From: a virus
Lineage: Duplodnaviria > Heunggongvirae > Uroviricota > Caudoviricetes
Length of the DNA: 64,000 nucleotides
Reading direction: 5' to 3' (one strand)
Virus record (IMG/VR): IMGVR_UViG_2778261375_000003
Position numbers and translations under genes: made by a program. Shown piece by piece: positions 40,357-43,682 of the stretch. The notes beneath the pieces were generated by a model. It saw nothing but the letters and a program-made list of their open reading frames with translations, ran no database searches and had not been told where the DNA came from. Numbering within the stretch: the first letter of the stretch is position 1; each line of letters opens with the position of its first letter.

Positions 40357-41262
40357 ATGTTTAAGCACTGGAAAAACATTACTATTTATAAACTTTCTCG
40401 TGAGGCGGATCTGACCGACTTAGAAGATAAAAAGAAAATGCTCCTTTTCACGCCATGCGGTAGTCAGGATATGGCCAAGTTCGGTTTTGTATCTCCATTT
40501 GGTGATAATTCCGAAGTTATCGCTATGCATGGAAATGGTTTTATCCTTGTTGAAGCAAAGCGCGAAACAAAAATTCTTCCCCCGCCGGTTATCCAGCGAG
40601 CTATTCAAGAAAAAATTGAAAAACTTGAGCAAGAACAAGCGCGTAAACTGAAGAAAACAGAGAAGGACTCCCTGAAAGACGAAGTTCTGCATTCTCTTCT
40701 GCCACGGGCTTTTTCAAAGTTTTCTGTTATCCAGGCGATCTACGACGGTTCAACTAAACGTATCTATATCAATGCCAGCGCGCGGCAGGCAGAGGATATG
40801 CTCGCGCTTATGCGTAAGTCTCTGGGTTCTCTTCCTGTTGTTCCCCTGAGTGTTGAAAATCCCATTGAATTAACGCTGACCGACTGGGTACGTGATGGTA
40901 GTGCTCCACAGGGATTTCAAATGGGGGATGCGGCAGAACTCAAGGCAGTGCTTGAGGATGGCGGTATTGCCCGAGTGAAAAAGCAGGATTTGGGAAGCGA
41001 TGAAATTTCCACACACCTGGAAGCTGGCAAGCTCGTTACTAAGTTGGCACTCGACTGGCAGAACCGCATTAAATTTACACTGGACCATAACTTCAGCCTT
41101 ACCAGCGTCAAATTTGCGGATGAATTGCTTGAGCAGAACTCTGATATTGATAGTGAAGATGTTGCGCAGCGACTGGACGCAGATTTCTTCCTGTTGACCA
41201 GTGAAATTTCGTGCCTGGTTGATGCTCTGGTAAATGCCCTTGGTGGAGAGGCTAAGCAGTGA
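40357..41262 (+). CDS. hrdC: recombination-associated protein RdgC homologue
   Basis: Start taken at [13 protein letters not shown]; ...[15 protein letters not shown]... matches the RdgC N-terminal signature; about 301 aa. Confidence 0.7.
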
Positions 41263-43682
41263 AAGAGCTGTGCTATGGATCTGTTTGCAGTGGAATTGAA
41301 GCCGCGAGTATTGCCTGGGAACCGTTGGGTATGCGTCCGGCGTGGTTTGCTGAAATCGAGCCTTTTCCATCTGCCGTTCTTGCGCACCGCTGGCCCCATG
41401 TCGCCAACCTTGGCGACATGACAAAACTTGCCAAAAAAGTCCTGGCTGGGGAAATCGAATCCCCTGATGTGCTCGTCGGGGGTACGCCTTGTCAGGCATT
41501 CAGTATCGCGGGCTTACGTGGTGGGCTTGATGATGAACGCGGCGCGCTAACTTTGAAGTATGTGGAGCTTGCAAATGCAATTGACGACAAACGGTCTGAG
41601 TCCTTCCTCAAACCGACAGTTATCGTCTGGGAAAATGTCCCAGGAGTCCTGTCATCGGCAGATAACGCCTTCGGATGTTTCCTTGCCGGATTGGCTGGAG
41701 AAGATGCGCCATTTGAACCAGGTGATCGACCTGAATCAGGAAAAAGTAACGCGTTCTGGCGGTGGGATGGCAAAACCGGTTGCCATGCTCCAAAGTGGCC
41801 GCAGTGTGGTTGTATTTATGGACCGCAGCGAAAGGTGGCCTGGAGAATCCTTGATGCCCAATACTTCGGAGTGGCACAACGACGCCGACGCGTGTTTGTT
41901 GTCGCAAGTGCTCGAACAGACCTCGATCCCGCAACGGTACTTTTTGAGTTCGAAGGCGTGCGCCGGGATATTGCGCCGAGCAGAGGCGAGGGGAAGGAAG
42001 TTGCCGGAAATGTTGGAAATGGCATTAAAAGCGGGAGCCATTGGGATAACCCTGTAAATCCTCACCCGACACTTAACCAGTCACACAATACTGGTGGGAT
42101 TGGTGCAAGTAACCAAGAGATTTTTGCGCAGCGAGGCAGCGGACTTGTGTATTGCATGGCGCATGGGCAAGGGGGGGCAGAAATAAAAAATGATGGGACA
42201 TCACCTACTCTTACTTGTAATCATGAAGCTCCAATTGTGTTTTCTTGCAAGAAAGCTATTGCGTTTACAAGCAAAAATTATGGGCAGGATGCGGGTGTTG
42301 AGATTTCCCCAACTTTACGAGCTGGTAACTCTGCTAATAGCAATCAAAACGCGGGATGCCCACCAGCTGTTGCGTATTCGCTACAACATGCACAAATTGG
42401 GCGAAAAGATGATGCTGGACCGCAGGGTAAAGGGTGGCAAAAAGAGATAAGTTTTACTCTTGATTCCCGCGCAACAGCTGACGCCGTTGCGTTATCTTTT
42501 TGGGGGCAGGAAAGTATTGAAAAAGGCGAATTAGGTGAGAATGGTTACTTACCTCATATGATGAGCGTTCGCCGTCTGACTCCTGTCGAATGTGAAAGGC
42601 TGCAAGGTTTTCCTGATGGACATACGTTGATTCCAACGGGAAAGCGTAAGAAAGTTACTTCAGATGAACTTATATACCTTCGCAATCACGATCCTGATTT
42701 AAGTGAAGAAGAGGCCGCCATGCTTGCAGCTGACGGACCTCGTTACAAAGCGATCGGCAATAGTATGGCGATACCAGTAATGCGCTGGATTGGCGAGCGG
42801 ATTACCAAGGCTGCATGTCGGCAGAAAGAAGGAAGTGAAACAAAAGAGCGAAAAGTTAAACCAGCGGCAGAATTCGAACGGTCCATATTCAAATGGGCTG
42901 GTGGAAAATTTGGTGTTCTGGAACAAATCTTTCGCTATTTGCCAGAAGGGAAGCGCCTGATTGAACCTTTCGTTGGTGGCGGAGCTGTCTTCATGAATGC
43001 CGGATACCAGGAAAATCTGCTAAATGATGTGAATGCTGACCTGATTAACTTTTACAAGACTCTGCAACGCGAGGCGCATTCACTTATCACTCTGGCACAT
43101 CGTTTCTTCCAGGACTACAACACGCAGGAAGGATACCTGGCAGTACGGAATGCGTTTAACAAACAAGTCTATGATGATTTACATCGCGCAGCGGCGTTTT
43201 TGTTCCTGAACCGACATTGTTTTAACGGATTGACGCGTTACAACCAAGCCGGTGAGTTCAATGTCGGTTATGGGAAGTATAAAACTCCGTATTTCCCATT
43301 GCAGGAGATGGAAGCCTTCCTTGGTGCGGAAGGGCGTTCTGAGTTTGTATGTGGTGATTTTGCTGCGGTGATTGAAGCTGCCGGAGAAGGAGATGTCATC
43401 TTTTGCGATCCGCCGTATGAACCGCTCCCAAATACAGAGGGATTCACGAACTATTCCGGTCATGACTTTAAGTTTGAAGAGCAAAAACGCCTGGTGTCTC
43501 TGTTGACGGATGCTCATCGCCGAGGTGCAAAGGTTCTCATTACTAACAGTGGCGCGCCAAACATCAGAGAACTTTATCAGGACAGTGGCTTCAGAGTGGA
43601 ACCTCTTTTTGCCAGACGTTCTGTGTCTTGTAAGGGGGACACTCGAGGTGTTGCTCATGACGTTATAGCAATATTGCTCTAA
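41259..43682 (+). CDS. dmt: bifunctional DNA methyltransferase (N-terminal C5-cytosine, C-terminal Dam-like N6-adenine)
   Basis: C5-MTase motifs ([16 protein letters not shown]) in the N-terminal half; Dam-like FxGxG and DPPY (FCDPPY) in the C-terminal half; GTG start overlaps the upstream stop. Confidence 0.8.

Follow-up and report, generated by a model that had tools for sequence, protein, structure and literature searches.

A P1-family dmt locus encoding a predicted cytosine-C5 and Dam-type methyltransferase fusion with a variable, cassette-like region

We analyzed a 64,000-nt stretch of viral DNA (called the window below) around the gene at 41259–43682. Judged by sequence, this gene is dmt from a phage-plasmid of the P1 family (Punavirus), and it closes a uhr-hrdC-dmt operon. 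From upstream to downstream, the operon and its control elements are arranged as follows.

39992..40008, + strand: C1 operator Op68/Odmt, ATTGCTCTAATAAATAT, with one mismatch to the consensus, overlapping Pdmt upstream of uhr (pattern search)
40080..40364, + strand: uhr, first gene of the operon, 94 aa, with an 8-nt overlap with the hrdC start (open reading frame and translation, P1 annotation)
40357..41262, + strand: hrdC, RdgC family, 301 aa (Pfam PF04381, E 4e-98; P1 and P7 annotation)
41245..41251, + strand: Shine-Dalgarno sequence GGAGAGG inside the hrdC end, 7 nt 5′ of the dmt GTG (read from the sequence)
41259..43682, + strand: dmt, 807 aa, GTG start, m5C plus Dam-type fusion, SJ46-type allele
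43673..43689, + strand: C1 operator Op72a (Obana), ATTGCTCTAATAAATTT, a perfect match to the 17-bp consensus in the ban-operon control region
43684..43700, − strand: C1 operator Op72b (Obanb), with two mismatches, the inverted partner of Op72a with which it forms a bivalent operator

At the DNA level the locus is 100% identical to two E. coli plasmids, NZ_CP103764.1 and NZ_CP069975.1. Identity to P1, P7 and SJ46 is about 97–98%, and their genes follow one another in the same order. The operator sequences match the annotated P1 record as well, and dmt has Op68 on one side and the Op72ab/ban control region on the other. The P1 GenBank record annotates Op68, Pdmt, uhr, hrdC, dmt (“bifunctional DNA methyltransferase”) and Op72ab, and describes the methyltransferase of dmt as acting “perhaps at C5 cytosine”. 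Automatic annotation labels Dmt only as “Dam family” and makes no mention of the cytosine half, so that its bifunctional nature is easily missed. Some database records name Dmt “multidrug DMT transporter permease”. An Rfam scan of 39800–46500 returned three tRNAs only; DicF had no match at the gathering score, although P1 annotates a “dicF-like” element.

Searching the window with the asymmetric 17-bp C1 operator consensus ATTGCTCTAATAAATTT and allowing a maximum of three mismatches, we found nine matches, compared with 0.26 expected from shuffles. The sequence-only reading had placed a perfect C1 operator over the dmt stop codon. The perfect match is indeed there, covering the TAA stop at 43680–43682, but it is not the operator of dmt itself: it is Op72a of the bivalent ban operator, whereas that of dmt is Op68. 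The Op72ab region is base-for-base the same as in P1, where it lies at the annotated ban promoters, and the annotated Op68/Pdmt region is likewise identical between the window and P1. By this correspondence, the predicted operator at the dmt stop serves the downstream ban unit, and Op68/Odmt is the operator governing uhr-hrdC-dmt. The position of Op72a constrains only the last dmt codons. A promoter consensus scan detected neither Pdmt nor Pban, both of which rest on the P1 annotation. Because the operon promoter in that annotation is overlapped by Op68, no Dmt would be expected from the prophage, and production would begin once C1 repression is lifted. Methylome sequencing of a carrier, the check suggested in the sequence-only reading, would probably miss the Dmt marks in an uninduced host.

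The TGA stop of hrdC and the GTG start of dmt share the sequence GTGA (41259–41262). The dmt start thus overlaps the stop of the RdgC-like gene by 4 nt, in agreement with the P1 and P7 annotations; the sequence-only reading had described the two genes as translationally coupled. Because this stop/start overlap follows a good Shine-Dalgarno sequence, ribosomes ending hrdC could re-initiate on dmt. The geometry can be read directly from the DNA; translational coupling between the two genes we infer from it. In a P1vir transcriptome, hrdC and dmt behave similarly.

Within dmt, we delineated two enzyme domains, a variable region inside the first of them and a short linker.

41259..41966, + strand: N-terminal part of the m5C core (aa 1–236), 235/236 identical to P1, with motif I CSGIE (aa 10–14), motif IV PCQ in the context GTPCQ with the catalytic Cys78 (aa 77–79, nt 41487–41495), motif VI ENV (aa 125–127, nt 41631–41639) and motif VIII QRRRR (aa 207–211)
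41967..42569, + strand: variable, putative target-recognition region (aa 237–437), consisting of a leader, cassettes a-b-f-g and a tail
42570..42803, + strand: C-terminal part of the m5C core (aa 438–515), with motif IX (aa 438–452) and motif X GNS (aa 500–502)
42804..42875, + strand: Lys/Glu-rich linker joining the two enzymes (aa 516–539)
42876..43679, + strand: Dam-type (D12 class) domain (aa 540–807), aligned to E. coli Dam residues 4–267 (E 5e-58), with the AdoMet motif FVGGG (aa 571–575) and the catalytic motif DPPY (aa 717–720, nt 43407–43418)

This arrangement confirms the earlier proposal of a single 807-aa reading frame at 41259..43682 that carries the m5C motifs PCQ and ENV together with DPPY. 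In a motif-level domain check, both halves kept their catalytic residues on alignment. The cytosine half matched Pfam PF00145 (C-5 cytosine methylase; E 2.5e-36, 126.2 bits against a cutoff of 22) and NCBIfam TIGR00675 (dcm; 112 against 100.65). Its motif I, CSGIE, is a family-typical variant that is nearly invariant in 126 relatives. An AF2 model of the C5 half, computed from an alignment with 126 diverse relatives, reached a pLDDT >90 in the catalytic core, and Foldseek returned M.HhaI and M.HaeIII as top matches to the modelled core (probability 1.00); on this model, the C5 half has an M.HhaI-like fold. A full-length AlphaFold model computed from a 13-sequence alignment was unusable (mean pLDDT 45). 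The adenine half matched Pfam PF02086 (D12 N6-adenine methylase; aa 546–779, E 5.3e-57, 193.9 bits against a cutoff of 22) and NCBIfam TIGR00571 (dam; 251.7 against 114.85). Compared with P1 Dmt, the catalytic cores are identical at 235/236 positions in the N-terminal core and 360/370 from motif IX to the end, and the Dam half at 263/267 (98.5%). The fusion stays one unbroken reading frame in hundreds of plasmids. By these sequence comparisons, Dmt genuinely joins a C5-cytosine methyltransferase to a Dam-type N6-adenine methyltransferase.

The cytosine half probably methylates cytosines of replicating phage DNA, which would shield the progeny from Type II restriction; going by the sequence, anti-restriction through this half is plausible. 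The benefit would be limited, because in many E. coli strains m5C makes DNA a target for restriction of the McrA/McrBC type. In the literature searched, m5C methylation by any Dmt has never been reported. The C-terminal half, at 98.5% identity to that of P1, would methylate GATC. According to PMC12707154, which cites Sternberg & Coulby 1990, the Dam activity of P1 Dmt acts at the pac packaging site. In the literature, GATC methylation permits pac cleavage in P1 and makes dmt essential in dam− hosts.

Three other accounts of the fused protein were weighed against this assignment. The sequence-only reading had suggested that Dmt feeds GATC methylation of the origin, and a dense GATC cluster (six in 91 bp at 37647–37737, between upfA and repA and ~3.5 kb 5′ of dmt) does mark the expected origin region. 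We nevertheless consider it improbable that the Dam half mainly keeps plasmid-origin GATC sites methylated in carrier cells: Op68 should hold the operon off while the element is a prophage-plasmid, the state in which that origin works, E. coli hosts already supply Dam, and the need for Dmt documented in PMC12707154 is at pac, in lytic growth. The origin claim therefore found no support, since Dmt from a C1-repressed operon is not expected in the lysogen. The cytosine half could instead be dead or vestigial, the protein acting as a Dam methylase alone with the N-terminal half perhaps used for DNA binding. GATC methylation is indeed the only activity of P1 Dmt documented so far, the automatic label names only the Dam family, and the reference P1 sequence carries G74W beside the catalytic PCQ, a change absent from 270 family sequences. 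Against this, all six diagnostic m5C motifs are intact in the window, including Cys78, Glu125 and G74, and the diagnostic positions are invariant or nearly so in 126 diverse family members. Moreover, in intein-bearing alleles the +1 Cys that PCQ would regain on splicing is retained, and this speaks for selection on C5 catalysis. We regard a dead cytosine half as very unlikely. Equally little credence is due to the idea that separate polypeptides are an additional, or even the main, source of the two activities, for instance through a Dam-only protein with a promoter and start codon of its own inside the gene. The P7 record places a late promoter, LPdam2, within the gene, 5′ of the Dam half; it is a prediction, however, and the sequence at that site differs in the window. 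From aa 509 to 578, no in-frame Met has a recognizable ribosome-binding site, the nearest Met residues (503 and 508) fall within m5C motif X, and the fusion frame is uninterrupted across the plasmids mentioned above. We therefore retain the reading of Dmt as one protein with two predicted methyltransferase activities.

The differences among the P1, P7, SJ46 and window alleles are concentrated between m5C motifs VIII and IX (aa 237–437). This region can be divided into cassettes of ~35 aa each with a “PTL”-type core, four of which lie in the window.

42030..42149, + strand: cassette a (aa 258–297), core HPTL
42150..42242, + strand: cassette b (aa 298–328), core SPTL, the only cassette of P7, weakly like a module shared by SPR and rho11s
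42261..42377, + strand: cassette f (aa 335–373), core SPTL
42378..42494, + strand: cassette g (aa 374–412), core SFTL

The array thus reads a-b-f-g in the window, b in P7 and c-d-i in P1; a natural allele class of 718 aa has a-c. Altogether, 13 cassette architectures occur in 115 close clusters, the b-only (P7-type) alleles being the commonest (80/115). The length of the region equals 63 + 35 × the number of cassettes over nine representative architectures (r = 0.99), a fit that is partly built in because the cassettes were defined by tiling that very region. Cassette-specific BLAST across 150 family representatives revealed varied combinations and orders, with several pairs found in both orders, and 11 out of 11 cassette types aligned on one core and a terminal hydrophobic strand. 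Cassettes appear to have been gained, lost and reordered among relatives. When the four window cassettes were aligned pairwise, no similarity above shuffles was found beyond the PTL core, so that they did not arise by recent duplication from one another. The cassette inference is based on the cassette-specific BLAST and the series of close relatives; a generic iterated cassette HMM, tried as a counter, drifted to one cassette type (r = 0.22 across the wide family). A comparison of the recognition region with all PDB sequences gave no meaningful match and none to solved TRDs. In the AF2 model of the C5 half described above, pLDDT is no higher than 30–50 across the cassette region, so that cassette structure cannot be judged from it.

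A tandem arrangement at this position is known from the multispecific m5C enzymes of the Bacillus phages SPR, phi3T, rho11s and H2. The spacing of the PTL-type cores is 35–48 aa in the window, 30–48 aa for the TL/TI cores of SPR and 41–47 aa in rho11s and H2. A profile built exclusively from Dmt cassettes picked out precisely those TL cores of the Bacillus enzymes (3, 4 and 4 matches, versus 0.05 per shuffled sequence), with weak domain E-values of 0.0005–0.7 that rest largely on the short PTL core. The best similarity of any cassette to a Bacillus module, that of cassette b to the module shared by SPR and rho11s, is weak as well (z = 5.2). By analogy with these enzymes, Dmt may be multispecific, each or some of its cassettes giving a separate target specificity, and we put the chance of this close to, but under, even. 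Cassette number need not equal the number of specificities, because the Bacillus phage enzymes reportedly also bear inactive “pseudo” domains, according to work from the Trautner laboratory. Such domains, the low predicted order of the cassette region and the weak similarity of the cassettes to TRDs would also suit a monospecific C5 half, in which one cassette contacts DNA (for example the one adjoining motif IX, or b) and the rest are spacers or pseudo-domains. That b-only alleles form the commonest class indicates that one cassette suffices. It would be odd, however, for functionless spacers to be conserved as units in distant relatives and to recur in many combinations and orders, and every cassette retains the PTL-type core and the terminal strand. 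On balance, we consider a monospecific half rather unlikely.

The multispecific reading can be widened, tentatively and with appreciably less than even confidence, to the P1-family Dmt proteins together with a very large related family of phage m5C enzymes: these would be modular and multispecific, with one target per ~35-aa PTL-core cassette. If so, a mechanism known from a handful of Bacillus phages would extend to enterobacterial phage-plasmids, which would swap cassettes by recombination and so match the restriction systems of their hosts. An a-b-f-g allele would then methylate up to four different cytosine motifs, and there would be a testable cassette-to-motif code. The cassette mosaic is a cheap and clear experimental target that could reveal recombination-driven specificity switching. 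P1-like phage-plasmids matter both as vehicles of resistance genes and as transduction tools, and cytosine marks on their DNA could influence which hosts accept P1-like elements.

The explanation as a whole, comprising the dmt identity, C1 regulation, both enzyme halves, the cassette-array reading and the assignment of Op72a to ban, appears highly probable to us. Dmt as a fused double methyltransferase and the operator at its stop codon are already known and not new. The shuffled, target-recognition-like array of four cassettes in the cytosine half is the sole part that may be new; the literature searched held no account of Dmt cassette structure or of Dmt inteins.

The closest relatives are P1 Dmt (AAQ14041, 754 aa), P7 “Dam” (AAQ07538, 672 aa) and SJ46 Dmt (AMR60040, 807 aa), which share the uhr-hrdC-dmt operon, the 4-nt overlap with hrdC and the Op68 and Op72ab operators. 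Dmt of Salmonella phage SJ46 is 97% identical overall and has an a-b-f-g array like that of the window, whereas the recognition regions of P1 (c-d-i) and P7 (b) differ from it. The P1 reference has W at position 74, where the window and the other retrieved family members have G or A.

For the Dam half, the closest known enzymes include E. coli Dam (PDB 2G1P, 4RTJ and others) and T4 Dam. E. coli Dam aligns over its full length at 40% identity (E 5e-58); its residues K9, W10, K14, D54, N120, L122, R124, Y138, K139 and DPPY 181–184, GATC-contacting positions among them, are kept in Dmt, and Y119F, P134G and R137K are conservative or variant changes. Unlike E. coli Dam, the Dam half of Dmt is the C-terminal domain of a fusion, and its score of 245.6 falls short of the NCBIfam equivalog cutoff for host Dam (441). 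The monospecific E. coli Dcm (CCWGG) has the same m5C catalytic motifs and domain order as Dmt, but only a single TL core in a 121-aa variable region, compared with four cassettes in the window; none of the four resembled the Dcm recognition region (z ≤ 0.4).

The enzymes of SPR, phi3T, rho11s and H2, studied by the Trautner laboratory, differ from Dmt in motif I (FSGIGG versus CSGIE), which places them in a different catalytic-core subfamily. Dmt is further set apart by its fusion to a Dam domain, and the similarity between the modules is weak. Like Dmt, however, they are phage-borne orphan m5C enzymes in which several tandem modules of ~30–50 aa, all sharing an (S/A)-P-T-(L/I) core, lie between motif VIII and motif IX, and their module sets vary between related phages as the Dmt cassettes do.

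The gene dmt, last in the operon uhr-hrdC-dmt, is a single ORF that encodes two methyltransferase halves. Its product matched PF00145 (C-5 cytosine DNA methylase) in two stretches (E 2.5e-36) and PF02086 (D12-class N6-adenine methylase) at aa 546-779 (E 5.3e-57), both well over the Pfam thresholds, and the NCBIfam models for the dcm superfamily (112 bits vs 100.65) and the dam subfamily (251.7 vs 114.85). The ORF call and both databases thus confirm the sequence-only reading of one 807-aa ORF with m5C and Dam-like parts. Its further claim, translational coupling to the RdgC-like gene, is in keeping with the three bases common to the TGA stop of that gene and the dmt GTG start (GTGA, 41259-41262). 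The Shine-Dalgarno sequence GGAGAGG lies 7 nt 5′ of the GTG, and this start is required because motif I would be lost with any other in-frame start. The features of the region are as follows.

39992-40008: Op68, C1 operator governing dmt, 1.25 kb upstream of it
40080-40364: uhr
40357-41262: hrdC, full-length RdgC-family gene directly 5′ of dmt (PF04381, E 4e-98)
41259-43682, plus strand: dmt, 807 codons, GTG start
43673-43689: Op72a, perfect match to the operator consensus
43684-43700: Op72b, inverted partner of Op72a
43863-43885, plus strand: strong terminator-like hairpin with T-run, ~180 nt 3′ of dmt, in the stretch called 'dicF-like' in P1
44358-44433, 44436-44511 and 46139-46214: tRNA-Asn, tRNA-Thr and tRNA-Met(CAT), as in the P1 ban operon
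46494-47864: ban, DnaB-type helicase

The P1 record (AF234172) gives the order C1 operator Op68/Odmt (which overlaps with promoter Pdmt), uhr, hrdC, dmt, Op72a/b (Obanab) with two ban promoters, a dicF-like region, tRNA-Asn and tRNA-Thr. Every element of this stretch is present in the window; the stretch annotated 'dicF-like' in P1 gave no match to DicF at the Rfam gathering score. The perfect C1 operator noticed at the dmt stop codon is indeed there: the 17-bp sequence ATTGCTCTAATAAATTT matches perfectly at 43673-43689, across the TAA at 43680-43682. Because the operator and control DNA is base-for-base identical to that annotated in P1, this site is, on that identity, an already known feature of the next transcription unit, ban, and not of dmt. 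Across the window the consensus had nine matches with at most three mismatches, vs 0.26 expected from shuffles. Six further operator-like sites with 1-3 mismatches (22233-22249, 23904-23920, 53734-53750 on the minus strand, 57358-57374, 57407-57423 on the minus strand, 59499-59515) fit the expectation for a P1-type immunity regulon.

The 3.9-kb region is 100% identical to E. coli plasmids NZ_CP103764.1 and NZ_CP069975.1, is present in 585 PLSDB records and matches phages P1, P7, SJ46, RCS47 and others at ~97-98%. The P1 record already describes dmt as a 'bifunctional DNA methyltransferase' acting on N6 adenine in GATC and 'perhaps at C5 cytosine'. The fused methyltransferase and its regulatory sites were therefore rightly recognised, but gene and sites were known before. 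PGAP gives the fusion a name that leaves out the C5 half ('Dam family site-specific DNA-(adenine-N6)-methyltransferase'), and in some records (relatives P0110 and P0114, PLSDB rows) it appears as 'multidrug DMT transporter permease', a label that seems to derive from the symbol dmt.

On careful alignment neither half lacks its catalytic residues, and with these motifs intact both appear active. The C5 half carries motif I as CSGIE, the form usual in this phage subfamily, with hardly any variation among 126 relatives, together with IV GTPCQ (Cys78), VI ENV, VIII QRRRR, IX and X GNS. Modelled with the 126-sequence alignment, its catalytic core reached pLDDT >90, with M.HhaI and M.HaeIII as best structural matches (probability 1.00). 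The Dam half aligned to E. coli Dam residues 4-267 (E 5e-58, 40% identity), keeping the AdoMet motif FxGxG (FVGGG, 571-575), D54, the catalytic DPPY (717-720) and the DNA-contacting K9, N120, L122, R124, Y138 and K139; Y119F, P134G and R137K were the only changes among the positions checked. It is identical to P1 Dmt at 263/267 positions.

Residue 74, two residues ahead of the Pro in the catalytic PCQ, is Gly in the window (nt 41478-41480; VLVGGTPCQ) and Trp in the P1 reference (VLVWGTPCQ). All 270 family sequences retrieved have G or A at this position, never Trp. The C5 half of laboratory P1 might be crippled, which could be a reason why m5C activity was never reported. At the same motif, exactly ahead of the catalytic Cys (GGTP/C...HN/CQAFS), a 341-aa intein (Hint plus LAGLIDADG) interrupts Dmt in 65/120 close clusters among the matches listed; the window has none. 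Carriers are relatives P0046-P0109 (e.g. P0084), phages RCS47 and vB_EcoM-Ro157c2YLVW, and plasmids NZ_CP100532.1 and NZ_CP148408.1. In two plasmids the window DNA appears to be present at 99.4% identity, interrupted by an insertion of ~1 kb, perhaps this intein; the literature searched gave no description of the intein. In the P7 record, a late promoter, LPdam2, is predicted inside the gene 5′ of the Dam half (3548-3566); its equivalent in the window (~42640-42680) differs at several positions, and no internal start codon suited to the Dam half was seen.

In prophage, C1 at Op68 would keep the operon silent, to be turned on in lytic growth with dmt translation coupled to hrdC; the two genes show like behaviour in the P1vir transcriptome. 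The C5 half would methylate phage DNA soon after its replication, at one or several short cytosine motifs, and so shield the progeny from Type II restriction when they infect their next host. A methylome of an uninduced carrier would probably miss Dmt marks because the operon should be C1-repressed there, and SMRT sequencing is insensitive to m5C. For the Dam half of P1 Dmt, PMC12707154 (citing Sternberg & Coulby 1990) documents GATC activity and a role at pac, whose cleavage needs this methylation, so that dmt is essential in dam- hosts. The proposal that Dmt also feeds GATC methylation of the origin fared less well. Six GATC sites do lie within 91 bp at 37647-37737, between upfA and repA, presumably the Dam-dependent plasmid origin oriR, but the idea conflicts with C1 repression in the state that relies on this origin, and Dam is also made by the host itself. 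Window-wide, GATC is neither over- nor under-represented (243 observed vs 249 expected).

In m5C methyltransferases the target-recognition domain sits between motifs VIII and IX. When the window protein was aligned with those of P1 (754 aa), P7 (672 aa) and SJ46 (807 aa), all substantial differences were confined to this interval (aa 237-437). Across 115 close homologue clusters the region splits into discrete cassettes of ~30-40 aa, named a to k, in 13 architectures, among them the following.

P7-type allele: b
710/718-aa class: a-c
P1 allele: c-d-i
Window and SJ46: a-b-f-g
Other alleles: b-h; a-b-h
Longest alleles: a-b-f-g-j; a-c-d-e-f-h; a-b-i-f-h-k; a-c-d-e-f-g

Region length follows 63 + 35 × cassette number (r = 0.99, nine representative architectures); tiling of this very region served to define the cassettes, so part of the fit is inherent in the method. 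Cassettes join directly behind a short hydrophobic strand (...GLV, ...AVF, ...AVAY, ...GVAY), and all 11 cassette types align on an (S/A/H)-(P/T/F)-(T/S/C)-(L/I/V) core followed by this strand. An exhaustive search yielded 4,539 wider-family clusters (E ≤ 1e-30); in the best 150 of these the cassettes recur in many combinations, some pairs in both orders (e-f/f-e, f-k/k-f, b-j/j-b). As far as the literature searched shows, this mosaic is undescribed for Dmt. The window array is a minority allele, with ~21 PLSDB records at least 95% identical to its C5 half among the ~500 that are at least 60% identical. The linker and Dam half (aa 516-807) form two clearly distinct alleles among relatives P0003, P0005, P0008, P0009 and P0118, one ending ...AILL and the other reading CRILATVADKQQKTINTITY... 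with the end ...AIMK or ...ATLN. Which of the two a protein carries is independent of its cassette array, so recombination takes place between the enzyme halves as well.

We regard real multispecificity of the C5 half as a serious possibility that falls slightly short of an even chance; in the leading alternative a single cassette works and the rest are pseudo-domains. Dmt was compared with the established multispecific Bacillus phage methyltransferases of SPR, rho11s and H2, whose variable regions of 215-279 aa hold 3-4 'SPT(L/I)T'-type cores, spaced 30-48 aa in SPR and 41-47 aa in rho11s and H2; the four cores of the window are 35-48 aa apart. A profile built from Dmt cassettes only gave 3, 4 and 4 hits on full-length SPR, rho11s and H2, exclusively at the cores and with weak scores (28 hits in 600 shuffled control sequences). 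Cassette b is weakly similar (z = 5.2) to a module common to SPR and rho11s, which we take to be the GGCC module. The monospecific E. coli Dcm, in contrast, has a single core in its variable region of 121 aa and no likeness to any window cassette. In architecture and evolutionary behaviour Dmt thus matches the multispecific type, while homology between the modules is no more than suggestive.
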